Shown here: piece after piece, positions 1-43,024 of the stretch | Position numbering within the stretch: position 1 is the stretch's first letter | Layout: the number at the start of each line of letters is the position of its first letter | Assembly: GCA_029261035.1 (NCBI GenBank) | Contig: JAJDCD010000012.1 | Location: forward strand, 158,776 to 222,775 | From: Candidatus Omnitrophota bacterium | GTDB lineage: Bacteria; Omnitrophota; Omnitrophia; Omnitrophales; JACROU01 | Reading direction: 5' to 3' | DNA length: 64,000 bases | Position numbers and translations under genes: made by a program | Notes under the pieces: generated by a model | What the model was told of the DNA's origin: nothing | Seen by the model: only the letters and a program-made list of their open reading frames with translations | Databases searched by the model: none

Positions 1-3000
1 GTTGTTTTATAATTTCCTGTAAGACCGACAACATCCAACCCTGTTGAAAGAAGACTTGCCGCTAAAAATCCAAGAGGACCTGTTAATGTTCCTAAAGCAA
101 GAATAGATGCCGTTGTTACAGCTTGTGTGACTTCGTATGCTGCATTTAAAAACCCACCTCGAGATTGGATGATGTTTTTTCCTTCTTGGTGTTGAACGTT
201 CCATGTCGTCCAACCACTAATTGGAGTTGATTCTACGGGAGCACTTCCAGGTGCTGGTGGCAACTGACCTTTTGTATTGAATGGAATTTGAGCCATCTGT
301 TGTTGCTGAAAGTAGTCTTTTTTATCTTCACTGGAAACAAAAATTGCTCCAAGAGCTGGCGCAACAGAACCATTAAACCAGTTATTTTCTACTTCTGTGT
401 ATCCCAGAACAGCTCTACGCTCTCGATAAGATGTTTCTGTTAAATCATCACCAGTTGCATTGGCATTTTGAGGATTGGATCGAATAACATCTAAAGCATC
501 GGCTTGAGTATGCACTATTTGACCTGCTTTAGGGTGATCTTGTTGATTCCCTTCAGAGTCTGTCGTCTTAGCTGGATATCGAACCACCTCTCCATTGTGC
601 TTAAATGCTTGTAATGGGGGAACGACATTTCCTTTATGATCCCTTGTAACCTCTTCTGTTGCTTGTATTATAGTTCGTTGACCAAATTTATCAGAGCTCC
701 ATCCTCCAATTTGCTGATCAAATTCATTCATCACAGTAACACTCGTTTTCTCTATGGCGCTATCTGTCCCGTTAGGGTCAACTTCGCCATCTTCGTTATA
801 TTTAACTGCAGTAAAGTTCTGTCTAATAACAATTTTATTTCCTAAATCATCCACACTATTTGTTGTTAAGCTGACAGAACCATCAACAGCAAAACCTACA
901 CGCCCGACTACTTGCATTTTTCCGTCATCATCTGGTTTGTAAAAAGTCGTATTGACACTCCCGTCACTTCCTCTGCTTCGAATACCAACCGAGTCTTTAA
1001 TATCTTCAAAAGCACGATCTCTAAATCGACTACCTGTCTGATTGGACTCTCCACTTTCAGGATTAGCATAATCACTGAATAACTGTCGATAACTTTGTCC
1101 ACTGCCCAACCCTTCACCTTGACCCACAAAGAAAATAGTATCTCCAGATTTTGCAGGGACAAACGTAGGCTTATCACTACCATCCAAGAATAAGTTCACA
1201 CCCTGACGTTGCCACTCCCCATCAGAATCCTTATTATAAATAACTGATCCTTGAACCGTACTTTTCACTTTAGATGGATCTGACTGATCTCCTAATTCCA
1301 CTTGTACTTTTTCTGCAACCAAACGGGTCGTGGCAACAAAGGTACGAACACCTGCCGTATTAACAACATCCGAACCAATCAAAACTTCTCCTTGAGTCAC
1401 AATACTACCAACCATACGAGTATCCACAGAACTAAAGGTATAAACAACCTGTTTACCTTCGCTATCTTTTGTTTCAAGACGCGCTCCGGCTCTTAATGGA
1501 ATAAAGGTGTTCGTTCCAGCAGCATCCACACTTGTTTTAAGGTGAGTTCGGTTATTAATGGTAGAACCTACAAATTGATTATTTTGAATCACTATCCCAC
1601 CCAAGGTGCTTGTCGTAATCGTAGAACCTTTTGTTAAAGTCGTGGTAAATACATCCCCTGTATAGGTTCCTGTTTCATTCCCTTCATCATCTAGTGTTTT
1701 ATAAACTGTGTTGCCATTTTCATCCTGGGTTGCTCTTAATTTAACTCCATCCTTACCTTCATAACCGGTAATAAAATTATCACTCAAAACGGTTTGTGTC
1801 TTAGTTTTACTTCCAGGAACCGTTAATGTAATACCAAACACCGAACCCATTTGAATTTCACCAACAACCGTTCTCATCTGATTACCAGCATTATCGGTTT
1901 GAACCATTGCTCCAGAAATTAACTCCGTCTCACTCGTTTCATTACCATCTTCACCAATAACAGTCTTAATTTCAAAAACAGCGCCTTGCTCAAGCGTTAA
2001 ACTTCCACCTAGTTTATAATCATTGGATAATGCACGATGCCTTAATGTTTTAGAATCTACTGCAGAAATTTCTACTTTGTCACTAGTCATTGCACCACTA
2101 ATGAGACGGCCATCTCTCATCACAGAGCCTACTGCCATTTTAAACTTAGGAGACAGAATAGGGTTACCGTCTGCATCTAATTTAGGAGTACCATCTTCAT
2201 TTTTAAGAGGAACTCCACCTAATTCAATCCCATCACCTAAAAAAGTTTGTTCTGTATGTCTAGCACCATCGGAACCTTCATACTTCATTACATACATTCT
2301 TGTACTACCTTCTCCTTGCCAAATGCCTCCATCCACATGATTCATGGTGGTTTTTCCGTCTACCACATTAAACTCAACGACAGCGCCACCATCTAAGGTA
2401 ATACCACCTAACTCAATAGTTCCTAAATTAGCAGAATACGTAGTTTTAGTCGCTCCACCCTCCACAACTTCTTTAGAAGTACGTAACCCCGTTTTACTGT
2501 TATAACTTTCTCCAGTCGTTAATTGCCCATTCGTAACAATGGTTCCATCTTTATAAATCATGTTTCCAATTTGAGCATTGTCCTTAGTAATAGTTAAAGT
2601 ATCCGTAACCTCTCCGTTAGCACCTGCTTCTGTCACTTGAACAAAACCAATAGCTTCGTTGGTCTTAATCATTTTCCCACTAATCAGTTTCCCACCAACA
2701 AGTGTCGTGTTTTCTAATAATTGAGTCACAGTTCCGTCAGCACCTTCAATTTTAAAGTACTTGGTATAGGTCGTTGTACGAACAGTCGTTAATTCTCCCG
2801 TTTCATTACTAACTCGTTTTGTTGCTGTTGTAACAATACCCGTATTTTTATCCACCAATTTACCTTCAATCAAAACTCCATTTCTAAACACAGGTGTTTT
2901 TCCATTTTCTCCTCGTTCCAAAAAGACACCATCTCTAATTTCTGCTTTATCAACACCATCCAACAACTTCATCGTTTGTTCTGTCACACCATCTATCGTG

Positions 3001-6000
3001 TTATATATTTGACGAATTCCTTTTTTCTCGTTAACAACTTCTCCATTTGTAATTAAATCATTCACCATCTTAAGGCCTGCAGAATAAACCAAACCAGCCG
3101 CCTCGTTCTTTACTTCTCTTAATGTCGTGTTAATTTTGTATCCATTGCTAATCTCATTTCTCCACCCATTCACTTCATCCACAACCAAACCTTCCACCAT
3201 ACGACCACGCCAGAATGTTGTTCCTGCATCTGTTGTTATATTCCTAAGTACACCATCTACTTTACTGCGTCTTTGTTCTACCTTTTGAACCAATTGCTGA
3301 GTGTAAATAACTTTTCCAGCCGAATCCAAATGAACTTCCCCACCATCTTTAGTTACTGTAATGGTTCCAGATTTTTTACCTTCTGCATCGTATTGAAATT
3401 CGGAGGTTTGTCCTAAACCGCCCCCTTGGGTCGTTGATGTTCTTCGAAGAACCAATTCTCTCTGACCATCCTTTTCTTTGCCCACAGCTTCTCTTAACTG
3501 AGTCTCACGAACTGTTTTTATTTCCTTAACCTGTTTTCCCCCAATGTTATGAACCTCAACAACACGTCGAGCACTCGAAGTCTCTTCAGCCAACTTATTA
3601 CCACTATCCATATCATAAAGAGAGTTAACCGTAGTTCCGTTTGTTTTAACAATCTTAGAAGCTCTGCCATTCTGCATATCCCACCAAGACTTAAAGGAGG
3701 TTCGTGTGCCATCATCGGCTAAAATATTATGAGCTTCTTTTGCTCTATCAAAGAAGTCATCACTTGGAGGTTTGTTACCCGCAGTTGCTTCCTCATACTT
3801 TTTGCTAGCTTCAACCATTTTTGTAATGTAATTATTTACTTCTTCAAACATTACGTCATAATTCCCTCCAGAAGAAGTATTTTGAAATGCTCCTCCCTCA
3901 TAATCCATAGAACCTTTCAAACGTCTTTGTTCTGCTTCAATTAATCTCGTAAGCGCAGATCCGTCATTTCCTAAATCTGCCCCATGATTATGGTGGTCCA
4001 TATGATCCGGAGAACCGCACTGCGCTGGAGCTTTATGCGTGTAGCTTTTAACTTCTTTAATAACCCTTCTGCTTACAAAATCATTATCCAACTCTCTTTC
4101 GAACATTTTTTTCAAAGTAGTTTCTAATGTCTCTTTCATATCTTTAAATCGATCTACCACTCCATTGTTCAATCGAGCACCGTTAATTCTCTCAACTTCG
4201 TAAGCTTCCGTACGAGTCTGTGTATCTCGATCGTAAGTACTTCTCTGTCCCACTTTCCATTTAGAGCGGTAAGCAGTATATATAGTCGTGTCTTCATAAA
4301 TCTTTTTCATTAAGGTAGCAAGCTTTGCTGTATCTAAATCTGAAGCTTTTGATTTTTGAAAAGGGATATTGTTTAACTTTTCGCCCGTAAGAATCTCTTC
4401 TGTTTGGACATCACTATGAAAACGAACTCGAGAAGGTAAAATCTGAAGAGGATCCCAATCGCCAAAACGGTAAATAACTGTTTCATCCTGAACCAACTTA
4501 AAGTCTTGTTTAAACATATCTTCCCAGAGGTGCGCCATCTGATAAGTCTTTACATCTTTTTTAAATTCATCTACTTTAATTGGAGATGGCCATTTTTTAA
4601 TATATTCCAAAACTTTATTTCTCTCATATTTATCTTGTTCATAGGTAAATCCATCTTTCTCATAACTTCTATTTAAGATTTCATTCCCTTCTTGCTTTAA
4701 ATCTTCTTCTACAACCTCTGCAATAAGATCTGCTCTTTCATAAGCACTCATTTCATACCAGCTTTTCTTGGCTTCAACACGAGCAACAAACCTAATGTTA
4801 ATATCAAGCGCTGATAACTCATTCAAATCAACATCTGTAATGTTTGGGACTACTTCTCTTAAATGTTTTCTAGACGCTTTAATAAGAGCATTTCTATCCG
4901 CATCAATCAGCTTATCAATCTCTTCATTTACATATTTATCCATTGCATCGTCTACATATTTTTTCTTAATGATCAGCACATCTGTTTGTCCAACAGCGTC
5001 ATCTCTTTGTCGAACAGCATCATCAATTTGCTCTTGCGTGGAATTAGGATCATTCATAATACGTTGCAACTCTGCTTCTGCTTCGTTTTCTCCCCAAGCA
5101 TCAAAAAGTTTGGCTTTAATCTCATTGTAGTGATTATCATTTATAACAGTGTCCACAACACCTTCTTGAAACTCTGAAAAATCAAAATATTCGTGATTAA
5201 ATTTATCTCTTTCAACTTTAATTCCACGATCCGCTCCCATAAAACCTTCGTCTGTCTGAAAATCAATCCCACCGATCCCTTCTTCTATTTTATTGACTAA
5301 ATTCATCATACGACTAAACGACCCACCACCGCGTCCATCCGTATCCAAAATATCCTTAGTTGTAGGAAATGAAAGCGTTGTATCCTTTGTTGTTTCTGTA
5401 TAAGTACCATCCTCATTACGTCTATCTCCATAATATTGGCTATACCGTGGAGGCTCCCCAGTCATAATCCGTTCTTTTTCGTAAATTTTAAGAGGAGGAG
5501 TAGGCCCGTCTTGATATCTGTTTTCTTTATACTCATCGTATTTCTCTTCTGCACTTTTAAATACACCTCCCATACTGGTCATATCTAATTCAGGGGTGTA
5601 ACCTCCAGACATACTATAAAGTGAACGGCCATAATAATAGCCTGCATATTTGATAGGGTCGTCAGAAGTTCTATTCTTAGCAAGAATGCTTTCTGCCAAT
5701 GTTTTCATTTGAGGTTCGATCGTTGACTTTTGTTGCTTAATCCAATCTTTGTACGTATCAGCAGCATCACTAATCTTTCCTAAAGCTCCGTCCATCCCTG
5801 AAGATCCAACCAAAGCTTCATGTATTTGTTCAAATGCATCTCTGGATTTTTGAAATGCCTCTTGATAAGCTGCTTCTGTTTCATCCACAAATGTGGTGTA
5901 AGCTTCTCTAAATTCGTCTTGAGCTTTTTTATCAATTTCTTGTTTTGCATTTCGAATGGCATCTAACTGAGCAACAAACGTCTCTTCAATACCTTCTCTT

Positions 6001-9000
6001 TTCTCTTTCTCTTCTTTAAACATATCTTCTAAGGCTGTTTTAGCATCTTCTTGTTCTTGTTTTACTTTTGCTATTGCTGCATCCGTAGCATCCGCAAATG
6101 CTCTTTGCGCTGTTTTCCAAGCTGTTGTAATCCCATTCATGGTGCTTGCATAGTCTTGCTGAAATTGGCTTACTGCAGCTTCATAAATAGACTTTTCAGA
6201 GTTGATACTTGCAAGAAAGGTAGCTTCATCTTGATCTTCTAAGAATTGATTAAGAGCCACTCGCAAAGCTTCATCATAAGCTGTTTTAGCTTCAAAAATA
6301 CCATCGGTGTATTCCTGCTGAGCATTATCCCAACCTCTACGCGTTTTTTGTTCCTCCTGCTCTAGCGCAACTCTTGCTGTTCCTTTCAGTTTATTTTGAA
6401 GCTCTAAAGACAACTCTCTATTAGGGAACTCTTCTCTAAAATCTTGTATTTCTTTCTGAACATCTGGGTCTCCACCCATCACTTCGTAGTAGTCTTTCAT
6501 AGAGGCTTCAATTTGATAATCGTAATCCTGCAAAGCTCTATTAAAGGCTTGGTCACTCTCTCTAATCGCATCATATCTTGCTGTAACAGCATCATTAACC
6601 CATCTACTTTCATTAAAAGTATCATCAGCTCCAAGTTCATCCAAAACATCTCTCTCTTCCTGACTCAGAAGACCTCTAATTTCACTCATATCTGCCAAAG
6701 CATACCGTCTTTTGTATTGAGCAACAGGACCACCCTCATTCTCACCAAATCCATTCTCCCAAAAAGCTGCCGATAATTCGTCCGCCGCTAAAAGTTTCTT
6801 CTCATTCAGCATTCCAACCTGGTCTCCCCGTTCATGCAACCCTCTAAAGAATTTAGAAAAATCTAAAGCACTTCTTTTGTTAGGTGTGTAAGGTGCCATC
6901 CATCGTTCTACCGTCTCATTAACACTCAGTGGTGGCTCTTGCTTAGGATCGAATAAGAAAAATTTATCCCCATCATGTTCAAAAGAAATGGCAGCATCAA
7001 ATGCATCAAAATAGTCTTTGGTTTTGCTTGGTGTATAAGAGTAAGTGCCATCCTCATTTCGAACTTTCTTACCTAAACGCTCTTCTACGTAATCATTGTA
7101 AAGCTCTCTCATTTGTTCCCGTTCATCTGCCCCTGTGGTAGTTGTTCCTGAGGACGTAGGAGTATCAAAAGGAAAGCCAGAAAATGTACTACCAAACAAT
7201 TGAGTTCCTCTTAATGTTGAGCCTGTATCTGTTATAGATCCACTACCATACTGACTCACACTTTGAGTATAAAAAGGACTGTCCACTTCTTGTAGAAAGC
7301 TTTCCAAAGAATCTCTCTCTAAAGATAAGAACTGTGCGTAACGGTCAGAATCATTAAATAATTCTCTATCAAAAAATTCTTGGGTTTTAACTACATTCTT
7401 AGTAATTTGTTCCATAAAATCATTACTTCTCATATCCATTTCTGCTGCATTTTGAAGATAATCATCTAACACCATAGGATTCATTCCCGTTGTAATTCCT
7501 AACCCACCTGTAAAACTCCTAGACTCCCCATCCCAACGATCTTGGTTTGGATAAGTAGGAGCAACAAAACCACTACCAGCAACACCCGCATAAAGAACTA
7601 GGGTTGGAGGAGAAATTTGAATCATACCGCCACTATGGAAATAATCTCCTCGCTGATCTTTTAACCATGCTCTTAAATTTTCTTCCGTACGATTACGATA
7701 ATCAATAGAAGTCATATTCATCACATCAGCAAATTGAGCACTGTCTACATTCCATTTCTGCTCTGCGTCAGCAAGAGCTATCTCTCTCAAATGAACGGCT
7801 TCGGCTACTTTCTCTTGGTATGCTACAAGCTCTTTTTCCCATGTCGTTTCAACAGCTACGAGCTGATCCATCATATCTTTGTCTAAAGTAGCTATTGTTT
7901 CTTTAGAATCTGCTTCTGCCTGAGCTCTCTGAATTTCATAATCTTCAATAGCCTGTTTTGGTTGATGTGTTGTTTGTGATGTATTCGCTGCTGTTAAAAA
8001 GTCTTGAAGGGTCGTTTCGTACTGGCTAAAGGTGGCATTGGAATCGCTTGAACGATCATCTCCGAGCAACAGATCTACGCCTAGAGAACCTGCTTGCTCA
8101 GATAAGATTTCAACATAATGATCTAAAAATGATCTTCTATCATCCGACTGCATTCTTGCATCAAAATCTGCTTGAGAAATAGGTGATTGAGAGCCTGCTG
8201 CAGAAACAAAGGTTTGAACGACTCCTTGTAAAGCAGAATAATACTGAGACAACTTACTTTCTAAGGTATCCTCAAGAGTTAGAAGAGCTCCCTCAAGAGC
8301 TTTCTCCTGTGTAGCTCGCTGAACAGAAAAATTCTTTTCTATCTCTGTTTTAGCTTCGAAGTAAACTTGTCTTTTTGGGTCCAGATCTAAATCCAGTTGA
8401 ATTCGAGCCGCATTATAATTATCTGCAGCACTTTTTTTATCTTTCTCATAATCAATAATTGCTTGTTCCATCTTTAAAATTACAGGGTCTCGAGCTGTAT
8501 GGTATTCTTTATCAGAAAATAGTTGATAATTTTCAAAGTGAGATTTGTATCGTGCTAGCGAATCATCAGCATCCGCTTTAGCATCATTCCAAACGTCCAT
8601 AATGTCATCAAAGCGATTCGAAATACCATCATACTCCTTACTATCAACCATATCTGAAGCTGCCGCTTTCAAATCTGCCCAACGACTATCTCTGGAAACT
8701 TTAAAATTGTCTGCCTCACCCGTTCCCGTACCCATCATTTCATCTTTTACTCTATTAAGTCGATCTGTAGTGTTATCTATTAATGCTTCTACTTTTTCCA
8801 TATAGGCATCAATCATTTCATCAGAAGCCGTATCTAACTGAGCTTGTGTTGTCGTCTGTAAATTTAAAACATTCTGAGCAAGGTCCAGATCAGCAGTCTT
8901 AGAGTCAGCTTTTACTTTATCTGCAATTGCTTCTTTAGCAGCTCTTGCTGAAATAGATTGCCCTGTTTCAACCCACTTAATATTTCTTCCTGAAGGTGGT

Positions 9001-12000
9001 GTTGGGCGTGACTCTCCTATAATAAAATTCATAGCACTTTGAGCCATACTTACCATTTGAGTATAATTAGCCGCTTTTATATTGTTTCTTTTTTCTGTAT
9101 CCGTTTCACCATCATACATACTCGCTTCAAACTCACTTACCCATTGCGAAACAGATTTTCCACCAGGTTTATAACGTGTTCTTTCATGAGGTTGATAGGC
9201 TTCAACTTCTGAATTCCAACGATATGAAGTCCTTTCTTTTGATGCATACGCATTTAATTGCCCTAAAGCATAATCATAAAGGGCTATATAAGCAGCACGA
9301 TGGGTGTTGTGGTGACCTGTTAATGTAGTTTCAAAGCTATTAATTGCTGTTTCAACTTTGGCTTTGTTTGCACGATAATCTTTGACGAAATGTCCATCCG
9401 TTCCTTCTAAAGCTGGATCCAAAAAGTCAGGGTCATCTAATGCAATAGCATCTTCGTAAAAATTCTCAATATTATGAGGTTGATACAATTCTTTCAAATC
9501 GGTTGTGTGCTTTTTTAAATTCTCAAAGAGTTCCACCGTTCTCTTTCTTTGAACTAATATACGCTCCTTTACTTTTAACATATCCTTAGCATGCTCTAAA
9601 TCTCGAAGTAAAGGACTGCTGTCATCTCTATCGGAGGCTTGGTCATACAAAGCTTGTCTTTGTTCTACGATTTGTTTCGCTACATTGTAATCATGTTCTG
9701 CAAGAAACTTCTTCGCTGCCAAACCACGTATATCCAACTTACGAAGAACCATCATTCCAGCATCCACTTCTTCAAATGAGATATCATTCCAACTTTTATC
9801 TGAAATATCTTCAGCAAACTCTGCAGCTTGCCCCGGTTCTGCGCCGGCAGTCCCTTCTAATGCTTTTAAGTCTTTTTTAGCATTTGTGAGATCAAACTCT
9901 GCAGCTTTCACCGCTAACTCAGCTGCTGCAACAGCATCCCCCTCTGCCACTTTCAATTGATCTCTCGCATTTTTTAAAGCAATTTCTTTTGCTCGAATCA
10001 CTTCTCTCAAAGCAGCTCCCTGCCGACCCGACAAAGCTGCTTTTGCTGCTGTCATTGCTTGTTGAGCACGAGCCAAATCATCCCGATTATTCCCTTCAAG
10101 ATAATTACGAACATCATCATAATATTTTTCTGCAGATTTTAAGTTAGTTGCTAAATTCTCAGCAAAAACATCTTTATCTTGGAAAGAATTGATTGCTACA
10201 AAAAGCCGTCCTTCATCTTTTCTGAAATTCTCATGCGCTGTAACCACTTTAGATGTTTCTTTATAGAGTTTCTCCATGGTGGCATGTTCACGAATGCGAT
10301 TCGTAATCGCTTTAACAAATGCATTTTTCGCCTGAACAGGCATCACCAATTTAGGAGGAGGATCTTGAGATAAATACCTCGCGTTTTCAGCCATTTGATC
10401 CGTTAAACCTGTAAAATTCTTTAGATGAGGTGGAATGAATTTATATATTTCTGCTGTAGGACCAGCTGCACCAACCTGATAAGCAGCAAAGAGTTTGTGA
10501 ATTTGCGACATTGTTGGATCGTAGTTTGATTCTGTGTCCTTTTGATTTGCTGTGGCCTGCAAAGCAGCTGCGTCATTTCTTAACTCTACCGCTTCAGCTT
10601 CTTTCTTTACAGCAAATGCCTCTAACTCTTGGACTCGCTTCAACATATCTTGAGTCGGCTGACTTAAAGCGCTCAATTCGGAATTCGCTTTTACTGCAGA
10701 AGCTCGAGCTTCTGCTGCTGCTTCCTCTGCCACTTCCGCAGAAGTAATAGCCACATCCGCTTGATGCTGAGCTGAAGTCAAACTAAAGGTTTGATATGGA
10801 AGCTCTCCATCTAAGATGACGCTAGAAGGATCTCTGAAATTCGCATTTCTTGGATCTATATCATCCAAGAGTGACCCATCTCCTCTTTCATCAATAATAT
10901 CCTCAAAAGTTCCATCGGACATAATTGCAATTTGTTTTAAAACTTTTCTTGCCGAAATAACTGGCTGTCCATCCTCATCAAATTGATCTTCCAAATACCA
11001 TATCTCACCCTTAATTCCTGATGGATTCGTCCAAACAATTTTTCCGTTTGGAGTCATTGTTTCTCCATTTTGATAGAAAAGTTCATCTTGGGCCAAATTA
11101 GCTGTTCCAGCTACTCTGAAATCAGTAATCTCATCTCCTTCTTGAGGAGGTGGTGCATTCGCAGGAGAATTTGTATCTTTAATGTATTGCAAGGTCCAAC
11201 CATTTTTTAAACGCGCTGTCGTAACAGACCCAACAGAAGGCTGAAAACCCAATTGATTTCCTGCACCATCATAGTAAACCTCATTACCATCAAAATAAGC
11301 TGTTTTTAATGTAATGTTGCCACGATCATCTTTTTCATATTTATATTCATAAACTTTTGGTAAAGCTATGATAGAACCTATCTGAGTCCCTTCTGTAGGA
11401 GCCTCAGAAGGTACTGCTTCTTGATTTTGCAAAACTTGAAGAGCTGCACCATCATAAACTTCTGATTTAACCAAATCACCAGCATCATCATAATGATTAA
11501 CCGTTCTAGAAGCCCCATTAGGTCCTCCAGAAGAGTTATCAATCATTTTTACAAGCAACCCTTCTTCTCTAAAATATTCAAATTCGTGTGTAACACCATT
11601 TGCAATAGAAAGTGTCATATCTCCCTTTTCATCATATTCGATATGGCTTTCTAAGGTTTCTTCCTGTTGCGTGACTGGGTTGACCTGAACAGCAGTTCCA
11701 TCGACAATAGTTTTTAAAATTTTACCTTTAGGATCATCGTCTTCTCTTTCGTAAGTGTATTTCATTACAGAACCATCAGGACGGTTAACTTCTTTAATTG
11801 TTGTGTCCGAGTTAAATATGGTAACAGTTCCTAAAGTTGTTCTATCTTCTGGGAAAAATGGATCTTCTGTGATTTCAGAACGTTTAAACGCTTTTCCTTC
11901 ATCGTCAATACCGTAAGTCCAAGAAGTCACAATCCCTCGTCCATCAATGTTTTTAGTTAACTTTCCTTCAACATCGAATTCTTGAGCATTCATCGTTCCG

Positions 12001-15000
12001 ACCAACTCAGGGCGATCTGACTTAACCGTTCTAGCAATTTTCCCAATCACATTGCCGACCGCATCCGTTATATTTTGGTATTCAATACGATTGTTATCAT
12101 CTTCAAAAACAAGGAGATTATTGGTGATGGGGTCAAATTCTTTGGTGATGGTATTGTCTTCGAGGTGATCGATTTGCTTGATTAAATTTCCGTAAGAATC
12201 AAATACCTGCTCTACTTCTGCTTTTCCTTGGTCATCTTCAACGCTAACAAGCTCTCCATCCGATCCAAATTCTCGAATGATAGTGGATGCTGCAACGTTA
12301 GCCAACCCAACAAAGCCAGCAGATAGTGCTTGTTGCGCGACTTCATCTCCCAATCCTTTAAATAAGAAGTCGCCTTTGGCTTCAGGAGAATCCTCTGGTG
12401 GCGCTCTAACATTAGGTTGATCATCTAAAATTCCGTCTGGTTCTGAAATTTCGGGTGGCAATAAAGAAGATTCTGGGATTTCGGGAATGTCAAAAAGCTG
12501 AACTACAGGCGCTGAAGAAAAGTCAGAAACATCCAAAACCCCGCTAGGACCACCTAGCCCTAAAGGACTAATAACAGAAGGTGCTCCAATTGCTTGAAAA
12601 TCAGCTAGAATCGATTCTGCTGACTGCCCTCCTTCAACATCTAATACGGATAAGTTAACTGCGCTAGTAGAGTCCGCAATATGTTTACCCCACTGTGTTG
12701 GTGAGCCAATATTTAAAAATTGAAGGTTGGCAGCCGTTTGTATGACTTCCGCCCATTCTTCAGGGGTGTTCATATTAGGATAAGGTCCAATGATAGACGA
12801 CAAATTATTATTAATAATGGAAACGATTTGTGATTTTTGGTTTCCTGCTTCACTGACTGCCTTTAATAGTCCTCTTGCTTGAGTAATATTTTGAATCCCC
12901 CCTGAATTTCCATAATATCCTGGAGTTCCAAAAATCTGATCTTTACTGACACCTGCACTCAAAAGCTCTATTGCAATAGCAACACCTTCCCCTTTGTCAT
13001 AACGTAAGCTATCCAGAATACCCGCAATTTGTTTAAACGTGTTTCCTCTTTGTTCATAATAATTATAAATATTATTCGAACTGTCTGTAGGATCTTCATA
13101 GTCATATTGATATACAGAGCCATAATAATTTGTTTTTGCTGTCAACTGCCCTTTAGGAATATAATTTAATGATAGTAATTGGGAATTAAATGCAGCCTTG
13201 AACAAGTCTGTCGCTTCGCTCAACTCCCCACCAACATGCTCTAGATAACTATTAAGCATCTCGTTCAAATCAACAACGCGAGAATCTTCCAAAGCTCCAC
13301 TTTCATCTAAAAGCACGTCATAAAGTTGCTCTAACTCTAAAGTCTGATCAAAAATCATCACAGCCAGCAAAGAAACTCCCGCACTCACTAGTTGATTAAT
13401 AGATTCAGCTGAAATAATATTGTTTTGAACTTTATCTGAAATTAAATTTAATGTACTTTCTAAATCTAAACTTGAATGCATTTGAGCCATTGACTGAGCA
13501 GCGCTAACAAACGAAGCCGAAATACCCAAAGCAGCCAAATTATCTACTTTTTCTTTCATTACAGGATCCGAAATAAGTGCATGCATTGAATTTAAAGCAT
13601 CGATACTACTGATAGAAGAAAGATCTACGTCCTGAACAGCTAAATCAACAACCTTACTGACAACAGCATCCCATTCTTCTTCTGTGGAAGGGTCAGGATA
13701 TCTTCCAACAATATTAAACATGTTGTCTTTCAAGGCTGTAACTACTTTGTCTTTGTTTTCACCTGCTGCTTGAATTGCCTTTAAATAAGAAGCCATTTGT
13801 TCAACCGCCCCAACGTCATCCCCTGAGCTCCTACCATATCGATCTAATGTTCCAAACAAAAATTGAATATCAACACCCTCAGCAACAAATTGAGACAAGA
13901 CATTTACAGCGTCCCCTTCCTCATTTCTAAAATTATTAGAAAAATAATTTAAGAAAAGGTCTGCTTTTTCTTTTCTATCACCATAATAGTCATCCGTGTA
14001 ATCAGGATCTCCTGATTGTCCATAAGTGTAATTATAAACACTGCCGTAATAATTCGTATTAGCTGTTAATAAAGATGGATCAATAAAACCTTCAAACAAA
14101 GAATTTTCGAGTAAATTCTTAAATCCAGCTATTGCTGCATCAAGCCCCTCTCCAGCATTACCCTCCATGAAACCACTGACAATTGTATTAAATTTATCTT
14201 TACGATAACGATCAAAAGAACCATTCGTATTTTTAATCACATCCATAATTTTATTGAGCTCTAAATCAGAACCAAAAACCATCATGACTTGAGCGCTCAA
14301 CCCTGCTGTATTCGCCTGATCTAAAATATCTGAGGTTAAATCTCCATTTTGTAATTTAGTCATTAAATCTGTAAGAACAGCTGCTTTATCTATTCCCTCT
14401 GTTCCTCCAATACCAGCAACCATAGCCATAGATATTCCGGCATTTAAAGCATTTTCTGTTACTGTTTTTAAGTTGGGATCCGAAAGCAAGGCATTCATTG
14501 CTGATAACTGATCAGTACTTGTAATAGCATCTAAAGAAAAGTTTTGCGCCACCAACCCTGCCGCATCATTAACCACACTCAACCAATCTTCAACGGTTCT
14601 TTGTGATGGGTAACGACCAACAATAGTACTAATATTATTCTCTATTACTGTTATAACCGCTTCTAGATTATCTCCTGCGTTATTTAACGCCTGAATATAA
14701 GCTTGCATTTGCACTGTAGACTTCAAACCATCCCCTAATGTGCGTCCATACTGATCCAAACCACCAATCACTTTATCTAAATCAATGCCCAAATCATTCA
14801 ATTGAGCCATCAACTCCAACCCTTCTCCCTGATCATATCTTAATGTACTACTGGTAAGTAAAAAGAATCGATTTGCAATATTTTTTCGGTGAGTAAAATA
14901 GTTTTCTATATACCCTTCTTCTCCTTGAGTTCCATAACTATAATGACTAAAACTTCCATAATAGTTTGTTTCTGCCGTTAACTGATCAACAGGAATATAC

Positions 15001-18000
15001 CCATTATCTAGAAGAACCGATCTTAAAGCATTTTTTACATTACCTGGTATATTCTGCCAATTAGCTGCTCCAGAATGATCCAAATAGCTATCAATTAAAG
15101 CATTCATTTTATCTTTTCTATAACGATCTATATCAGAACCATCGTTAGACAATGCATCAAAAAGTTTCGTCAAATCCTCTGTTAAGTCAAAAGTCAAAAT
15201 AGTCTGCAAGCTAACTCCATTACTCACTAGCTGAGTGATAGAATCTGCCGTCATCGCTCCTTGATTTACTCTGGATATAAGCTCATTCAATACGTCTGCT
15301 AATACCATTTCCGGATGACGTCCCTGTGTATCCCCAGCCAAAATCAAAACACTCGAATCCATTCCTGCATCCGTAACAGCTTGGACTAAATTTTGAGTAT
15401 CTGGATTTGTTAATAACGAGTGCATCGTATCCAAAATAGAAGTACTGGTAATCGCATCTAAGGATGTATTTAGATTAACCAAATCAACAATTTTATTAAT
15501 AGTCTCTTTCCAACCTTCGACAGAGTAAATTCTTGGATAAGTCCCGACGATAGGAGTTACATTATTTTCCATTACTTGAATAAGCGTTGTAGGGTCTGCA
15601 GCTTCTTCAATAAGCTCTTGATATGCTGTTAACTGATCTTTATTTTGAATACCTCGAGTAACAACATAACCATATTGGTTATATTCCCCTAATAAAGTTG
15701 TCGAGTTCACTCCTGCTTTGTAGAGCGCTGCCATCGCTTGAAGAGCTATCCCTTTATCCGTCCCTTGAAAAGAGTTAAATCCATTAATCACATTGTTAAA
15801 TACTGTTTGGCGATTATTTCGATAAGTAGACTCATTAACTCCATCGAAATCATATTGAAGAGCACTGTTACTATCAACATACTGTGTTGGAACAACATAA
15901 CCATTTGAAAGCATCAACGTTTTTAACATATCTTTAGCATCCGACATTTCGTTTTTCCAGTTAGCACCCCCCACATGACTGATAAAACCATCGATTAAAG
16001 CACTCAAACTACTAGCTCTAGTCCCCTCAACAGCAGTGTAGTAACCGCTTCTTCCCAAAACATCCGCAAGTTGATTTATTTCTTCTTCAGTATCAAACAT
16101 AAGGATAGAAGTTAAACTTAAACCCATTTGAGTCATATGATTTATTAAACTGGCATCATACGCTCCACTCTGAATTCTTGTCTGAAGATCTGTAAGAACG
16201 TCTTTGGCTAACATTCCAGGGAAGTTTTCTTCCGATTCTTTTGCCATAGCAAGCACAGCAGGGCTTACATTAGAAGAACTGAGATTTGCCATCAAAGCCA
16301 GCGTCTCTGGGTCTTGAGTCATTACATTAAGTCTTTCTAAATCTTCAATACTCCTTGCCCCATTAACTGAAATTCCTGAGTTAATAATATTAACCGCATT
16401 TAAAACTAACCCTTTGTACACTTCTGCTTCCTCAAAGCCATTTGTAAAATTAATAAATCCCGCGATTCCACTGTTGATTGCAGCTACTCCTTGGGCAGAA
16501 TTACCACCTAGTTGATCCATTGCTTGTTTAAATCCATCTAAAATATTAATGCTATAAACACCATTATAAAGTAACGTTCCTTGTGCAATCCCACCTAACA
16601 TATAATCTCCACCTACTCCCTGCTCGTAGAGCGATGACAAAATATCAAGAGCTCTGCCTTGATTAGGAGAAGCAGAACTGATCACATCATTCATTCGATA
16701 AAACACCGATTGCCTATTTTTATAGTAATCATTTGTGTTGTACATATAAGGGCTGGTTTCTGTTCCATCACCTATAATTCCAAATTTCACTCTTTGCTCT
16801 GAAGTTAAAGCCCCCCAAGTTGTAGTATCCGTAATGTCCAAATAGTCATAATCCAGCAATGTCTCCATTAAAAAGGTTTTAACTCTGCCTTTTTCACTCT
16901 CCCAAGAAGCAGCCCCTTTATACTCAATAAATCCATTAATCATGTCGTTCATCATATCAACAACAATAGTGTTTGTTGTTACACCGTACCTTAAAATACC
17001 ATCAAAAATTTTTTCAAATTCAGCTTCTGAATCAAATAACATCAATGTTGTAATATCCAACCCAAATGCTGCCATGCGATTGATTGTGGTTACAGATAAA
17101 TTCCCTTGTTGAATTAAGTCCTGGATTAAATTCAAAGTTGATTCAGCTGTAAACTCGGGAAATCGCCCTTCTAACTCACTCGTAGCTCCTATAACACTTC
17201 CAGCAATTCCTTCAGCAGCCAGAGAGTCCACTAATGGTTTTGTGGCAGGATCCATAACTAAATCATATGTTTTACGAATAGATTCTAAAGTGGTGTTAAT
17301 AGGCACTGACAAATTGTTATTTTTAATAACAAGCGCTTTTTCCAATACTTCTTTCCAATCAGCAGAAGACATTACAGTGATATGTTCTACGGATTTTAAT
17401 TGGTTATTTACAATCTCTACCATTAATGTTCTGTCAGCCTCTGAAGCTTCTTCTAGCGCTTGGGCAAATCCGCTCATTTGATCTTTAGAATCCATTCCTG
17501 GCAATACCACATTTCCATAATACCCATATTCCCCTTGAATTCTCTTAGGGGTAACTCCAAAACCTGCCAAGGTCCCAGCACTCAACAAAACCTCTCCTTC
17601 ACTACCGCTAAATTTATTCATAAACGACTTAAAACTATTAAAAACTGTTTTGCGGTTATTGTAGTAAGTATAGGTATTTAAAGTAAGTCCTCCGCTGTAA
17701 TAATCCTCAGAAACACCTAGACGATAACGATCTTCTTCTGGAATCGCCTCTAAGTTTTGAGGATCGACATAATCCACCATGATAAGCAAGTTCATCAAGG
17801 CATCTTTTACTTTGGTTAACCCAGAGTCATCCAACGTCTCATAAGCATTCGAAACAATATTATTTAAATTTCCAACACGACTTGTATCAATTGAAACATC
17901 ATTACTTTTTAATACATCCATCAATTGTTGTAATTCAGAATCTGTATCAAATAGAAGAATCACTTTTAATTCAACTTGATTGGATACAAGCTGATCCAAT

Positions 18001-21000
18001 GTGTCCTTACTAAATTCCTGTGCATCTAATTTTGAAATCAATGAATTAATGGTATCTTGAAAGACAAAACTCGAATTCTCTGACTCGAGCGAAAGAGCCG
18101 CTGCAATCAAGGATCCTGAAATACCTGCGGCAGAAGCATCCAAAACAATTTGTCTCATCTGAGGGTCTAATAACAGTTCACCCATCCTCTTTAAAGAATC
18201 CACATCTGTAATTCCTTCTGTTGAAAACCCTAAATTTGAATCATTAACAATGGTATCCGTTAACGTTCCATTTGAGTCATAAACATAATCCTTAAGAGTA
18301 ATTTTCCCATCAATAATAGCAACCTCACTAACCAAACGATCATTAACATCGTAAGATTGACTGCTGCCATCATCTCCAAAAGCTTGCCTTGATCCATCTG
18401 GGTTTTGAATTGCAGTCACCTCTCCTTTAGAATTAATTTGTTGAATCGTAACTTGATTATCAACACTCGTTAATCTAACTTCTGAAAGTTTATTTTCTAC
18501 GTCATAACTATACTCTTCCATAGATCCGTCTAAAAATTCGATTTTTGTAACATTTCCACTAACATCATAAGTCTGTTGTGATCCATCTTCTAAATTAACC
18601 GTTGTACTTGTATCTTGAACGTCAAAAGACTGTTGAGACACATTTCCATCTTTGTCTGTTTTTTGGATTGAGGATATATTTCCAGATACATCATAAATAT
18701 AGTTCTGAGAGGAGCCATCAGATAAATTAATACTTAATAATTTGCCTGAAGCATCATAAACTTCTGTGGAACCATTAGGAAGACTTACAGTAAGAGTATT
18801 AGTGTCTGGATCAATTGCCTGTGTTGTAGTTTGATAGTTATTATCAGTAATCTCTACTTCTATAAGGTTGTTATCTGTATCATATTTAAACTGTCGAGAA
18901 CTTCCATCTACATTATCAATACGAGTTATATTTTCGTTATAGTAGTAATGAATACGTCCATCTGGAAAATCAATACGATTTAATGTGCCATCATACCCAA
19001 ATGATTGCGTTGTTTTCTCCCCATTAACCGCCGTAAGAGATATCTCTCGAAGAGTTGCTCCCCAATAAGAATAGTCAATAACTGTCCCGTCAACCTGAGT
19101 CACTTTTGCCAATTGACCTAATTCGTTATAATCGTGAACAGCTCCATCTGGCAAAACAGATTGCTGAATATTGCCATTCTCCGCCATTGTATGCACCGTC
19201 AAAGCATCATTAGAATCCCTAGCTTCAATCGTAATTAAATTATTGTTTTCGTCATATAAGTAAGTATGATTTGATCCATCAGGGTAAACGACAGAAGAAA
19301 CTAAATTATCGTCATTAAAGTAAGATACAATGCCATCAGAAGATGTTTCTGAAATAATTTTTCCTTCAGGACTTATCGCTTGAATTACTTCGGTTCCGTC
19401 TTCATCAATCAACTTTATAGATGACAACACTTCATTTGAGTACCCCAACTCTTTTGAACTACCATCCGTGTGCTCAATTCGGTATAACCGCCCCTCAGAG
19501 TTAAAGTACTTCATGTCTCCATTAGGCTCTTCAATAGAGACAACCTTTCTATTCTGATCTAAAGTTTGAGTGGTAACCTTCCCTTCACCATCCGTTATTT
19601 CAATTGTTTGCAACAATCCTAAAATACTGTAGGAATACTCTTGCTGGGTCCCATCCCCATTAACAACTAATTGAATTCTTCCAGACAAGTCATAAGTTTG
19701 TTCTGTTCCATCTTCCAATTGAACCACAAAACTATTGCCATCATCTCCAACAACTCTTTCCGTAACAGTTCCACCAGCTTCTGTAACCACAATTTTTGAT
19801 AAAACAGAATTTTCATCATATTGGTAGTCAACTCGATTTCCATTCGCTTTATTCACAGATTGTATTTGCTGGTTCTCTCCAAAAAACTGAACGCTACCAT
19901 CAGGTAACTCTACCGTTGAAATCAATCCTCTTGGGTCATAATTCTGAACTGTTTCATTACCCACAGCATCTGTTAGTTTTATTTTTTGCAACAACCCTTT
20001 ATCCGAATAAGAATAATTTTTACGGGTCCCATCCACAAACTCTATCTTCTCAAGATTCTTACTTTGGTTATAAAACTCTTTGGAGCCGTCTGGATTATCT
20101 ACAACAACCAAGAAACCCTCTACATTAAATCTCTGTATGGTTACATCGCCATCTAAGTTTCTCTCTGTAACCATGTCTAATTTACCTAAATCATCATAAA
20201 GGTAATTCACCTCTTCCCCTGAGACTTTGACTTCTCTCTCTAATTTTCCCAATGCATTATAAGTTTTTTCATCTCCTGCTATAGTCGTTTCACTCAAGAT
20301 ACGGTCGTTTTGATTGGAATCAAAAACCATCACTTTTCCATTGGACCGTGTCACTGTAATAACACCTTGATCTATAGCTAACGTGGCAAGGTTCTCATCC
20401 GTGTCTGCAGAAAAATATTTCTGATAGAAATTAATTACATTTGCATGAGCTTTTGCTTCTTCTACAGAAAAACTTGTCTTTGCCCCACTACTGATATCAG
20501 ACAATTGACCTCTAATTTCTCCATAGTTAAGAGATACATCCGCCCCATCAGTATCTTTTACAGTTTGTAGCAATGTGCTATTTCTATCTAAAAAGCTTTG
20601 GTAAGCCGCAAATTCTTCAGGGCTTTCAGTCATTAGATTGGCCATAAAAGCAACATTAAGTTCTTCTGAATTTATTTTCAGCCCAAAACCAGTTGAGCTA
20701 CCAGCTTCAGAAACAGCCTTAAAGGTTTTTCTATTAGAAAGATCTGATAGGTTTACATTCAACGCTGCTGAAACATCATTTAAATTTGCAACAACACTTT
20801 TTGCCTGTTGAATTTGCTCTTCTGTTGCATTTACATCGAAAATAACATCATCTTTTAAACTAACTGCTGATTGAATTAAGGCATTAATACTATCTATGTT
20901 TTGATTCGCTATATACAAATCACCTTCCGTCAAAGCCTCAATAGAAGATGTCCTCAATACATTGATTTGACCTGTAATTTCTGTAAGAATATTTAGTGAT

Positions 21001-24000
21001 ACATCTGAGGTCACTTCTCTACTCAAATTATTTACTCCATCTTCCAAAGAAGCTACAATGCCATTAATTGCATTTTTAATCGTTGCAGCATCCCCTAAGT
21101 CCTCTTGAGTTCCCCCTAAGGATTCCAATCCTAAAATCGCTAGATCCAACCCCTCTTGAATAGATTGAATTCGCTCCAAACTAATTGAGGCTCTTAAGCC
21201 ATCTTGGTCCTGAATTTGTTGGGTCAAATCACTAGCAATAGCAACTGCTCTATCATTCAAACTTTGAACAACTTCATTCAATTGCTCTAAAGAAGCAAAA
21301 GAGGAAACCCGAACAGCCTGCATCAAACTTTCATTATCCGCTAATTGAGTTTGTAATGACAAAACGAGATTCTCAGCTTCTTGAATTTGCTCAGCTGTAG
21401 AAAGCCCACTTTTCCTCATACGTTCCAGCGCATTAACAGCACTGTCATTAAGTATCTGAAGATTTTGCAACGCAGCTTTTGATTGATTAAAATCGTTTTG
21501 CTCTATTGCCCCACCTAGTGCAAGCTGTATATCTGCTGGAGAAATAGTACTCTGATAAGACTTCATAACACTACCATCAGCTCTTTTATCATAAGACATT
21601 CTATTCGCCTGTATTTCACCTGTTAAAGCAGAAATAGTCGCCGAAAGAGTCACGTCATTATCTTCATTGAATTGGGTAAGCAAAACAGTCCCGTTCTTAT
21701 TTACTTCAGTAATCTGTTCTGTTTGATTATTAGACCTTTTTACATAAGAGTAAGTACTAACACCACCAAAAGGATCTCTTTTTTCAATCATGTCTCCTTC
21801 TTTGTTAAACTTTTTAATGGTTCTTCGATCATTGGAGTCCGTTTCAATTAATTGGGTTAACACTCCATCTTCACGCGTATATTCCATCTTAATTCTTTTT
21901 TCATACGAACCATCTGCTGGTGTTGAAATTGTTTCTGTCATATCTCCATTAGAGGCATAAATCCGTGTGGTCTTATTTCCAGTTAAATCATCTGTTTCAA
22001 TAACCTTTTCCATCGTTCCTTCAGCATTTCTAATCGTTTCGGATGTTGTGGAAGAAATAATCACGCCGGATGAATTTTTTACTACATTTTTAGTAACATC
22101 TCCAGACGTAAGGTCCATGGTGCTGACAGTGTTATTACCCTGATCATCATCTGTGATTCTTGATAAAATATTTCCCAAACTATCTTTGTTATAACTCATA
22201 TTGGCCACAACATTGGTTTTACTATAAGGGTTATATGTTTCAATACGAATTAAGTCATTTTCTTTTGGATCAAAAACTTGTGTTTTAATGAAGCTTTTAG
22301 GATCAACTTCTATAATGTGTGTTGTATTTCCAACGGAGTCTAAAACATAAGAGTATTCTGTAATACCTCCAAATTCATCAATTTTCTTCTTAATTTGACC
22401 GGTAATGACGTCCATTTCTTTAGATACCAATAAACCTCGACCATCCTTCTCAGTAATAAACTTAACATTACCCACACCATCTCTTAAGTATTGAAAATCT
22501 GTCTTTCCTCCTAATGGATTGGTAAGAGAGATTAAATCTCTCAACAAATTAAATTCTTTTCTTGTTACAAGACCATTCGGATCTGTTTCAATAGTTTTGC
22601 TAATATTTCCTTTTCCATCTTTCTCGTGAATCATGCTGGTCAAACCACCAAACTTGTTACTAAAACCAGTCACATCTCCATGAATGTTAAAAGATTGAGA
22701 AGTTTCATTACCATTTTTATCGGTGGAAATCTGTTTGCTTAGATTTCCTTTTCCATCTTTTTCATTTGTGATATTGGTAACACCTCCATATTGATCAATC
22801 AAAGCAGTTGTGTCTCCATGGACATTCGTTTTTCTGTGAGTTTTGTTTCCATTTTTATCAATCGTGCTTGTAACCAAGACATTACCTTTTGCATCCTTAG
22901 TGTAATCTAAGACACTCACACCTCCGAAATTATCTACCTGAGTAATCAAGTCTCCACTGGTATTATAGTGTTCTTCTGTTTTTTCATTATTACGATCAAA
23001 ACGTGTGATCTTCTTATTGTTTCCTTTCCCGTCTTTTTCATACAACATTCTACTCGTCGATTCCCATCCTTCTTCCAAATTTTTAAAGGTTTGAGACAGA
23101 ACATCCCCATATTTGCTCATTTCTTTTTCTGTCACATTATTATTCTTATCTGTTTCAATTGTTTTCTCAATATTACCTTTATCATCCTTTTGGTATTCGA
23201 ATAAAGTGGTAGCAGACCATCCTTGCTCTACATTCTGAACAGTCAAACTTTGAATATCACCATATTTACTTTGTGCTTTCTGAGTAATATTTCCATTCTT
23301 ATCTGTTTCTGTAACTAAATTTACATTTCCTTTATCATCTTTACCATACACAAACTCCGTGGAAGCTTCCCAACCTTGATCTTTGTTTTTAAAGGTAAGT
23401 CGAATCAAATCTCCATGGATGTTATTTTGTTTAATAGTTTCATTTCCATTTTTATCTGTTTCTGTAATTTTTACAAGATTACCAACACCATCTCTTTCAT
23501 AAACAAATTCTGTCGTCGCCTCCCAACCTTCTTCATTGTTTTTAAAGGTAGAGCTCGTAATATCTCCAGCTACATTAAAGTCCTTAATTGTTTGGTTTCC
23601 ATTCTTGTCCGTCTCTGTTGTTTTAGTGATATTTCCAATTTCATCTCGTTCATAGCTTGTCGTTGTAATCGCTTCCCAACCTTCTGAGAGGTTTTTAAAA
23701 GTAACCTTAACAACATCACCAGCGTCATCAAACTCTTTAATGGTTTTATCCCCATTCTTATCTGTCTCTGTAGTTTTAGAAACATTTCCTAGCTCATCAT
23801 GTTCATATTCATAAGTTGTTGTATCTTCCCAACCTTGGTCTATATTTTGAATTGTTAATTCGACAAGTTCTTGTCTGCCGTTAAATTTTTCTGTTTTAAT
23901 ATTTCCATTTTTGTCTGTTTCTCTACGTTCTATCATATTTCTATTTTCATCAAACTCATATTCAAAGGTTGATTTCGCTTCCCAACCTTCAACACTTCTA

Positions 24001-36301: not shown

Positions 36302-36330
36302 ACTATACCTAGTGTTTCCTATTGTGTCAA
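36302..36330 (-). promoter_or_regulatory. Near-consensus sigma70 promoter for the giant gene: -35 TTGACA (36325-36330), 17-nt spacer, -10 TATAGT (36302-36307).
   Basis: Minus-strand sequence ttgacaCAATAGGAAACACTAGGtatagttatagtgt lies 30 nt downstream of the rndB stop and about 70 nt upstream of the giant-gene ATG. AGGAGG sits at 36241-36246. Confidence 0.55.
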
Positions 36331-39300: not shown

Positions 39301-39455
39301 CTAGCTCTTGTTGTAACTGAAATAATTCCTCGAGACATGTTTTGATAGAGTTCAACTTGAAGACTGATTAAGGAAATAACACCTAGGAGGATAATCCCAA
39401 CAAAGAATATGATAGTAAAAACAGGTCGTCTAACAGAAAAATTTGGAAGTCCCAT
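36360..39455 (-). CDS. RND family efflux permease (HAE1/AcrB-MdtC-like), 1031 aa.
   Basis: ORF track. RND N-terminus MGLPNFSVRRPVFTIIFFVGIILLG, 12-TM architecture, size typical of AcrB/MdtB/MdtC. Confidence 0.9.
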   Translation of the reverse strand: MGLPNFSVRRPVFTIIFFVGIILLGVISLISLQVELYQNMSRGIISVTTRARGGLAPVEVESLITKPVEESVATVARLKNLFSNSREGESKVTLQFEPGTNMDFAALEVREKFAKVKNKLPEEIEKPIIANFNDSDSPILIFSIVSGVKTPEELREYVEKNIKPAVARVQGVASVDVYGGRERKILIELDRDRMFAQNITVEKIMETVGSANVNLLAGDFQQGSLNIAIRTIGGFTEVEDIGEIGVGTTSEGSIVPLKEVGTVKDAYSEPQDYARLNNQDNCSLQIKKTSTSNTIKVSRSVQSEVELIRKFLDEDIRISVITDRAESIKKAIGEVRNSLLLGVILTVLTIFAFLRKVSLAFIVMLSIPSAVIGTFIFMAALGVSINVMTLTGLALAMGMLVDSSIVVIENIYKKKQEGMHHFEAVIVGAEEVWLPLAASAATTIIVFLPIIFIDKEIQLMYQGLAFTISASLICSLFVAVMLIPMLMSRIKLGRSGGAEDLKKLERSRFFSGYRFLLSKTFKNKYIVLLIVFLSFVYAAGEIGKKDMDMPSSYEENEFSVIVFPIAGAKLGANDRVAKIIEDLLSEFPEVETMNTVVRKDDLKLYVKLLPKRKRKTSKEEIIKYIREKGGEEAKTVHEDYSVIVDEGVSGDESTKLVIDIYGHENDKLEKLAHEFTGIMGKVPGLSNVVMTDLRKRPEYSLIVDRGRASYYNLTVKQVADSIHAQVRGMRPTKFREQEKGEEVETITRLQPIYREKLEDLRRILVGNKGGDQIPISQVASFFPSTGPSTIDRKDKHRYVFVKADTSRAIEAVAKDVKEAVKDVEFPKDYYFRFGGKYPELIKGRGQLSQAMIITVVLIYMLLACLFQSFVQPLLIMVAVPLAAIGVWAGLTLTGKPLSQSVFIGMIMLAGTVVNSSIILIDRINMLKEDYTHVESLLMRACQDRLRPIMMTTTSTLLGFAPMAISFGQSAELWAPLAITVMGGLISSTILTLFIIPCLYYGLDDLKRGFSKLRNIKIPKLSLKKKTEIPVN

Positions 39456-39475
39456 AACGTTGTCCTCGAATCCAT

Positions 39476-42898: not shown

Positions 42899-43024
42899 AG
42901 TTCACCTCAAGGTTCTTTATAAGTATACACCATATTTGCATTTATGACATTTCTTAGTTGCTAAACGGTGTTCCGAGGAGGGATTTAGATATTTATCCTT
43001 GCTACTATAGTAAATATCTCTTAA

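Follow-up and report, generated by a model that had tools for sequence, protein, structure and literature searches.

Introduction

Ebh-type giant proteins of Gram-positive bacteria are rods of FIVAR/GA helical bundles with a C-terminal membrane anchor. Among all phyla, Omnitrophota are the best known for giant genes (bioRxiv 10.1101/2023.11.21.568195; 10.64898/2026.06.04.730025), and two types of Omnitrophota giant proteins exceeding 30,000 amino acids (aa), Archaeovorin and Dockerin, have been described (West-Roberts et al., bioRxiv 10.1101/2023.11.21.568195). These bacteria are tiny and apparently predatory or epibiotic; few known genes are as large as their giant genes, and the way these work is barely understood. 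Here, we analyse a 64,000-nucleotide stretch of a Candidatus Omnitrophota genome (GenBank assembly GCA_029261035.1, contig JAJDCD010000012.1, positions 158,776 to 222,775), referred to below as the window. Its minus strand carries one giant gene that codes for RHS/YD repeats followed by a non-repetitive tail. An earlier sequence-only reading of window positions 1-10800 had seen in this tail a long stalk, a metal-binding or processing site and beta-rich delivery or anchor domains, resembling CdiA- or Rhs-type toxin delivery proteins.

We tentatively propose, with a confidence that stays somewhat short of an even chance, that the flagged region provides a giant Sec-exported Omnitrophota surface protein, which presents a YD array to other cells, with its membrane-proximal stalk and anchor. 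This proposal draws on a single open reading frame (ORF) with a start and an export signal, on the RHS/YD arrays upstream in the same protein, on the segmentation of the helices and on 29 consecutive uncharged residues just before the window edge. Furthermore, the tail contains a FIVAR-like unit, typical of surface proteins. The tail spans about 3,800 aa free of repeats, and passes from a helix-biased region (aa 8501-10850) through a beta-biased one (aa 10851-12058) to the uncharged stretch at the window edge. After Sec export, the C-terminus would stay fixed in the cytoplasmic membrane through the terminal hydrophobic segment. Together, the helix-rich and beta-rich regions would constitute a jointed, membrane-proximal stalk, in which numerous short helical bundles, including a FIVAR-like one, take the place of a single coiled coil. 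Such a stalk would extend the long YD array outward, where it could contact prey or host cells.

With the described Omnitrophota giants, the protein shares the phylum, a huge single ORF, an N-terminal signal, mostly unannotatable sequence that is predicted to be extracellular, and RHS-like beta-helical parts. It differs from them in visible size, at least 12,076 aa, and in domain content. Indeed, none of their glycosyltransferase, methylase, peptidase, NUDIX, SecA_DEAD, Dockerin and TSP3 domains is found in the window, whereas true Pfam RHS repeats dominate here. In the Dockerin type, a hydrophobic segment has been reported towards the C-terminus; in our case one candidate transmembrane segment (aa 12059-12087) lies at the window edge. 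Giant and largely unannotatable genes were already known in this phylum; this one stands apart in that true RHS/YD repeats make up most of the protein, which matches neither of the described domain sets, and in its almost orphan tail.

The flagged stretch is the tail of a single giant gene

A six-frame stop map and translation reveal a minus-strand frame that runs from 36296 to 3 through 12,098 codons with no stop. Residues are numbered here as codons counted down from window position 36296, so that residue i occupies 36297-3i..36299-3i and the ATG at 36230 is aa 23. This ATG, with an AGGAGG located 8 nt 5' of it, is the first good start. Counted from there, the giant gene (3..36230, minus strand, as are all its parts described below) comprises at least 12,076 codons and leaves the window at the low end with no in-window stop. 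The stretch 1-10800 is thus no gene by itself: it corresponds to residues ~8500-12098, the last ~3,600 visible residues and about the final third of the in-window protein. The remark that the effector end is not in the window was correct, since the frame leaves the window at base 3.

A sigma-70-like promoter, TTGACA-17-TATAGT (36302..36330), precedes the ATG by about 70 nt and agrees with the consensus at 11 of 12 positions. Judged by this consensus match alone, the giant gene is probably transcribed from a promoter of its own. The site sits between the stop codon of the neighbouring AcrB gene and the giant-gene ATG, and no terminator-like site was found there. The protein begins with MRLKKARSEKKSFLRSTRK and then enters a hydrophobic segment (36102..36173, aa 42-65), which is preceded by a Lys/Arg-rich stretch and looks like a Sec-type signal peptide or signal anchor, as predicted from sequence. 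The protein is strongly acidic (net negative) in every section, and Cys10760 (4017-4019) is the sole Cys after the start codon in at least 12,076 aa. Both the strong negative charge and the single Cys are as expected for an extracytoplasmic protein.

A frame of this size could also be an artefact, either an assembly chimera or a decaying pseudogene, whose composition zones would then have no function. The genome and the gene are missing from every collection searched, which leaves no independent copy for comparison. Nevertheless, we find this explanation scarcely credible. Indeed, 12,098 sense codons in DNA of 37% GC cannot stay open by chance, and an independent metagenome-assembled genome (MAG) has a collinear homologue with 33-52% identity. 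Furthermore, the DNA sequences of the repeats have drifted apart, and Tandem Repeats Finder detects two arrays only, at 73-74%; collapse or mis-joining is therefore unlikely.

RHS/YD arrays precede the tail

The RHS/YD repeat arrays occupy 18177..34706 (aa ~531-6040), outside the flagged stretch and within the same protein, and were identified with Pfam, self-BLAST, a unit hidden Markov model (HMM) and offset periodicity. Pfam RHS_repeat PF05593 matches with E = 1.7e-100 in aa 23-4000 and with E = 1.3e-39 in aa 4001-8000, TIGR01643 (NCBIfam) also matches the array, and the HMM of a 63-aa unit gives 62 matches below aa 6100. Much of this region of ~5,500 aa is composed of such 63-aa units, three YD hairpins each, arranged in 252-aa super-repeats; a separate array has a period of 51 aa. 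The array is unusually regular at window ~30000-34500 (aa ~590-2100) and 21296-24296 (aa 4000-5000), and its 200-aa tiles reach up to 68% identity. From its sequence, the regular array bears more resemblance to a fibre with open ends than to the closed cocoon of Rhs proteins.

The YD array is followed by about six Leu-rich repeats of ~305 aa each (12597..18176, aa 6041-7900), which are 26-38% identical to each other and have no match in Pfam or NCBIfam. Together, the YD/RHS and Leu-rich repeats cover ~7,800 aa. A moderately hydrophobic segment is observed at aa 6050-6070, within the Leu-rich repeat zone. A last degenerate module of YD-like hairpins (10857..12269, aa 8010-8480) leads into the helical region and has no Rhs-core DPxGL motif at its end. 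All RHS/YD matches are located upstream of the flagged stretch, with none in aa 8300-12098, and from aa 8300 onward neither self-BLAST nor offset analysis detects internal repeats.

The likeness to Rhs proteins is thus substantiated by an array upstream in the same frame, a reason absent from the sequence-only reading, while a canonical Rhs toxin is not recovered. These repeats bring in the main rival to the stalk and anchor, namely a giant Rhs-type polymorphic toxin. The YD arrays would then carry or encapsulate a cargo, the helical and beta regions would be pre-toxin or translocation modules, and a membrane-inserting or pore-forming effector would begin at or after the Gly-rich hydrophobic segment, with its end and its immunity gene beyond the window. 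RHS repeats are indeed abundant in the protein, pore-forming Rhs effectors are known (cited in PMC12057145), and the teneurin-like YD proteins of bacteria are toxins displayed on the surface (PMC13018210). With the Rhs/YD toxins our protein shares the YD/RHS repeats, an N-terminal membrane or signal segment as in the teneurin-like proteins, and a fast-evolving C-terminal part, which is lineage-specific like toxin ends.

On the other hand, the Rhs-associated core TIGR03696 is absent from each third of the protein, and no PxxxxDPxGL autoproteolysis motif follows the YD region. The shorter pattern DPxG[LIVMW] has two matches only (aa 4572 and 5454), both inside YD repeats, and NF041261 reaches 229 bits where its cut-off demands 2000, all of them from repeat positions. 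Pfam identifies no PAAR, VgrG, SpvB or TcB-type N-terminus; instead, the N-terminus is Lys/Arg-rich and hydrophobic, hence Sec-like. The proportions do not correspond either: the YD array has ~4-8 times the length of a cocoon and near-regular 63-aa units, and the tail measures 3,800 aa against 100-300 aa for a C-terminal Rhs toxin. The tail is more than ten times larger than a cocoon-enclosed Rhs toxin; given how large Rhs shells are known to be, we infer that a YD cocoon could by no means accommodate it. Neither a toxin domain nor an immunity gene is visible in the window. In addition, the most conserved block of the tail is internal (aa 10831-11080) and is not a variable tip. We therefore rate a giant Rhs-type toxin as somewhat unlikely; if the tail did lead into a toxin, it would represent an Rhs system devoid of the canonical core.

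The proposed likeness to CdiA did not hold. CdiA two-partner-secretion toxins are of the same size class and likewise evoke the notion of an extended extracellular filament whose C-terminal part is distinct, and only this size and this filament-then-tail logic speak for a contact-dependent inhibition toxin of that type. None of the defining domains TPS (Haemagg_act), FHA-1, FHA-2 and PT-VENN is found by Pfam in the 12,076 aa, nor in the tail at E up to 10. Moreover, the upstream genes include no CdiB/TpsB-like gene, the repeats are YD and not FHA, and the N-terminus is Sec-like. A CdiA-type toxin was rejected for the visible 12,076 aa, since every defining domain is absent, and we give it practically no credence.

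The helix-rich region is composed of short segments

The first part of the tail (3747..10796, aa 8501-10850) is an acidic, non-repetitive and helix-rich region of multiple segments, as judged from composition, Chou-Fasman analysis and a structural model. Ala reaches 16% at aa 8500-9000 against 7-8% elsewhere in the protein, and helix formers account for 44-62% of many 100-aa windows. Similarly, the Chou-Fasman Pa-Pb value is +0.11 over aa 8501-10850, whereas the protein's own YD beta arrays range from -0.06 to 0. The Ala- and helix-rich composition of the ~2,300-aa zone described earlier is thus confirmed, whereas its coiled-coil-like character is not. Indeed, a crude heptad scan retrieved two segments only, amounting to 2.8% of residues. 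One of them (9855..9938, aa 8787-8814) lies inside the peptide that had been given as the example of a coiled coil, and the other is located at 10659-10790 (aa 8503-8546). Residue similarity is raised at offset 7 (z = 5), and also at 11 and 18, in aa 8500-9500.

The idea of a single helix several hundred nm long is contradicted by three observations. First, in a single-sequence AlphaFold2 model, aa 8499-9698 form helices only, with no strand, and these number 34, of 4-66 aa each, with low confidence (mean predicted local distance difference test, pLDDT, 39.8). Second, the longest Pro/Gly-free run of the region is 103 aa. Third, three islands have no helix bias in the Chou-Fasman analysis (aa 9501-9700, 10201-10400 and 10601-10700). 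Coiled-coil and secondary-structure prediction had been suggested as a check of the stalk; the heptad scan speaks against a coiled coil, and the low-confidence AlphaFold2 helices are consistent with helical structure. Collectively, these data indicate that the helical region consists of many short helices with breaks and is neither one helix nor a long coiled coil.

A single unit of this region (4986..5102, aa 10399-10437) is helical and FIVAR-like. It shows 50% identity over 40 aa to each FIVAR repeat of a wall-associated protein, and it remains sub-threshold in Pfam (FIVAR, E = 0.16, 13 bits, under the cut-off of 29). Two other weak matches, at window 4737-5396 (aa ~10363-10468), overlap this unit, namely the eukaryotic Mago nashi among PDB sequences (25 bits and E = 1e-4, with E = 0.003 also obtained) and the protein A helical bundles (E = 0.03). 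Both are probably fortuitous. Compared from general knowledge, Ebh-type proteins resemble our protein in being very large and exported, and in their short helical bundles, with one FIVAR-like unit here, and a hydrophobic segment near the C-terminus. However, the helical region is non-repetitive here, the FIVAR match is single and sub-threshold, and the organism is a diderm with RND/TolC genes.

A Cys/His loop lies near the end of the helix-rich region

The His-rich loop YTHKAPAQCGSPDHMDHHNHGADLGNDG (3960..4043, aa 10752-10779) contains Cys10760 and, starting five residues after it, the cluster HMDHHNH (3984-4004). Nowhere else in the 12,098 residues are His packed as closely as here, with 4 in 7 residues, and none of 500 shuffles reaches such a density. 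The His/Cys-rich motif noticed previously is therefore real; its lower bound was 25 bases off (it had been placed at 3985-4045), and the other coordinates of the sequence-only reading were within a few bases of those measured again here. As for the suggested metal-binding or processing site, the motif stands out statistically, yet it does not behave as a conserved catalytic centre. Indeed, in the alignment with MBI4399103.1, the sole homologue of the tail, it falls in a gap, as part of a 17-residue insertion absent from this homologue. The surrounding stretch is also the least conserved one (12-14% identity, 32-40% gaps), and MBI4399103.1 contains no Cys. A motif confined to such an insertion is unlikely to be a conserved site of catalysis or processing. 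From sequence, the Cys/His loop is most likely a lineage-specific, putatively metal-binding surface loop.

The beta-biased region ends in an uncharged stretch

The next part of the tail (123..3746, aa 10851-12058) is Gly/Thr/Val-rich, non-repetitive and beta-biased. Gly accounts for 10-17% of residues, Thr and Val are high, and Pa-Pb is -0.02, similar to the YD arrays, in agreement with the beta-type zone described earlier. AlphaFold2 was uninformative for this region (pLDDT 32.5, scattered hairpins), and hydrophobic-moment analysis gave weak signals only, with a beta-amphipathic periodicity of z at most 2.2. The possibility that the region is a degenerate YD array was rejected: the 63-aa unit HMM and hhalign found nothing past aa 8177, with a probability below 1% against 78-99.6% for positive controls.

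This beta bias would also be consistent with an adhesin anchored in the outer membrane, either through a C-terminal autotransporter-type barrel or, for a type I-secreted RTX adhesin, with the help of the upstream TolC-like and HlyD-like genes. Genes for an OEP/TolC-like and a membrane-fusion protein are indeed located 7-10 kb upstream on the same strand. However, the upstream system is of the RND type, with two AcrB and no ABC exporter, and no RTX/HemolysinCabind or autotransporter domains are found. The beta-amphipathic periodicity is weak, and the 29-residue uncharged stretch is not barrel-like. In addition, the giant gene has the probable promoter of its own and is absent beside the orthologous AcrB of a relative. 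An outer-membrane-anchored adhesin thus seems very unlikely.

The uncharged stretch of 29 residues, AVTTASILALGTLTGPLGFLAASLLSTGL (36..122, aa 12059-12087), is rich in Gly and small residues and constitutes a candidate transmembrane segment, beyond which the ORF continues to base 3 and further. It is the longest run of the protein free of D/E/K/R/H/N/Q, and none of 300 shuffles reaches 29 residues. Taken as a whole, the sequence-only reading was right about the zones, the His motif and the hydrophobic end, and wrong about a single long coiled coil.

The succession of alpha-rich, beta-rich and hydrophobic parts beside YD repeats also recalls Tc toxins. In a Tc-toxin-like fusion, the helical region would be a TcA-type alpha shell, the beta region would hold receptor-binding domains and the hydrophobic segment would be the channel tip, all joined to a TcB/TcC-like YD part. 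Only this order of parts favours such a fusion, and it is inverted compared with Tc systems. Furthermore, Pfam VRP1, TcA_TcB_BD, SpvB and TcdB_toxin_mid are absent even at E up to 10, and no Tc component is matched in PDB sequence searches, which makes a Tc-like fusion highly improbable.

The tail has a single relative

A full HMMER pass with aa 10250-11449 against 1.84 billion representative proteins returned one true relative of the tail, MBI4399103.1 (E = 3.6e-70). This partial hypothetical protein of 1,208 aa fills a 3.6-kb contig of a Ca. Omnitrophica MAG and is collinear with aa 10136-11270. The best-conserved block of the tail (3057..3806, aa 10831-11080) is 44-52% identical to it, apart from one 50-aa window at 36%, includes SFKSWWDMQ and TDAGTTFWRGRM, and sits at the alpha/beta junction.

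Pfam (E up to 10), NCBIfam and PHROG contain nothing that matches the tail significantly, and sequence and profile searches of the PDB yielded the weak Mago nashi match only. No tblastn match was obtained in phage and plasmid records. The last 500 aa have no further copies in species-representative genomes, JGI metagenomes or viral contigs, and the conserved block, searched as a two-sequence alignment, has none in metagenome or viral contigs. Word-indexed homologue searches with aa 10899-12098, 8299-10898 and 6001-8499 returned no matches either, and these are weak negatives. Indeed, no match was found even for the query aa 6001-8499, which contains YD repeats; with long queries, the prefilter of 8000 candidates may be less sensitive. 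By these sequence comparisons, the tail module appears phylum-restricted, confined to Omnitrophota. If the tail is an anchoring stalk, the block 3057-3806, the Cys/His loop and the terminal hydrophobic segment would provide defined pieces for structural work on how such a protein is held at the surface.

Evaluation of the stalk and anchor

Several observations weigh against a membrane-proximal stalk and anchor. The true C-terminus is located beyond the window, so that an anchor cannot be distinguished from a toxin or translocation element. The membrane-like character of the Gly-rich end, proposed earlier, holds for its uncharged length, whereas its hydropathy is borderline for a membrane helix: the Kyte-Doolittle mean of AVTTASILALGTLTGPLGFLAASLLSTGL is 1.8 over 19 residues, a value reached by 261 of 300 shuffles, and a Gly-Pro occurs in the middle of the segment. 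The secondary-structure assignments rest on composition and on weak models (pLDDT 39.8 and 32.5). The passage of an inner-membrane-anchored protein across the outer membrane of a diderm is unexplained. In addition, Pfam finds neither the Dockerin/TSP3 nor the Archaeovorin domain set in the visible 12,076 aa, and the protein therefore belongs to neither described type of Omnitrophota giant proteins. Finally, in a related MAG (JACROU010000024) no giant gene is present at the syntenic site after AcrB, and the linkage to the RND genes is not kept. Our result is descriptive, and the function is inferred.

A more far-reaching version of the stalk and anchor can also be considered, in which the protein would add a third class, founded on RHS repeats, to the giant surface proteins of Omnitrophota. 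A phylum-restricted alpha/beta stalk would support a YD array that is open-ended and exceeds 5,000 aa, and the conserved junction at aa 10831-11080 would adopt a new fold. The Cys/His loop next to this junction would act as a metal-dependent switch or as a self-processing site, which would release or activate the distal array on contact with prey. We regard this extension as quite unlikely.

Genomic neighbourhood and host

The DNA upstream of the giant gene (36360-64000), on the same strand, has an ordinary chromosomal content. It encodes two AcrB, a membrane-fusion protein, a TolC-like OEP, ProRS, RseP, Dxr, CdsA, UppS, PurA, SerA, ClpP and trigger factor, as well as a histidine kinase, PhoU, a Na/Pi transporter, Dcd, SufE and three tRNAs. 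The RND efflux cluster (36360-46326, minus strand) is directly adjacent to the giant gene and comprises two tandem AcrB paralogues of 1,031 and 1,091 aa, the membrane-fusion protein and the OEP/TolC-like protein. The latter is unusually long, with 687 aa.

The AcrB beside the giant gene is 78% identical to that of the related MAG, a Ca. Omnitrophota groundwater genome, and other matches do not exceed 30%. Together with the Ca. Omnitrophica source of the sole tail homologue, this identity supports an Omnitrophota origin. In the related MAG, AcrB is followed by unrelated genes of 1,172 and 1,705 aa (4739-13470 of that contig). Their products look paralogous, carry signal peptides and share an N-terminal motif, IILIQDVHA and IVYLIQDAHE, respectively.

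Across the whole window, all ORFs longer than 150 aa are on the minus strand, apart from one antisense shadow ORF, and the GC skew stays negative throughout, from -0.15 to -0.33. The 64 kb are therefore strongly strand-biased and contain no skew switch. A tRNA-Gly(GCC) at 57070-57144 overlaps the listed TTG start of the trigger factor ORF (55768-57114), from which it follows that the true tig start lies further downstream in this ORF.

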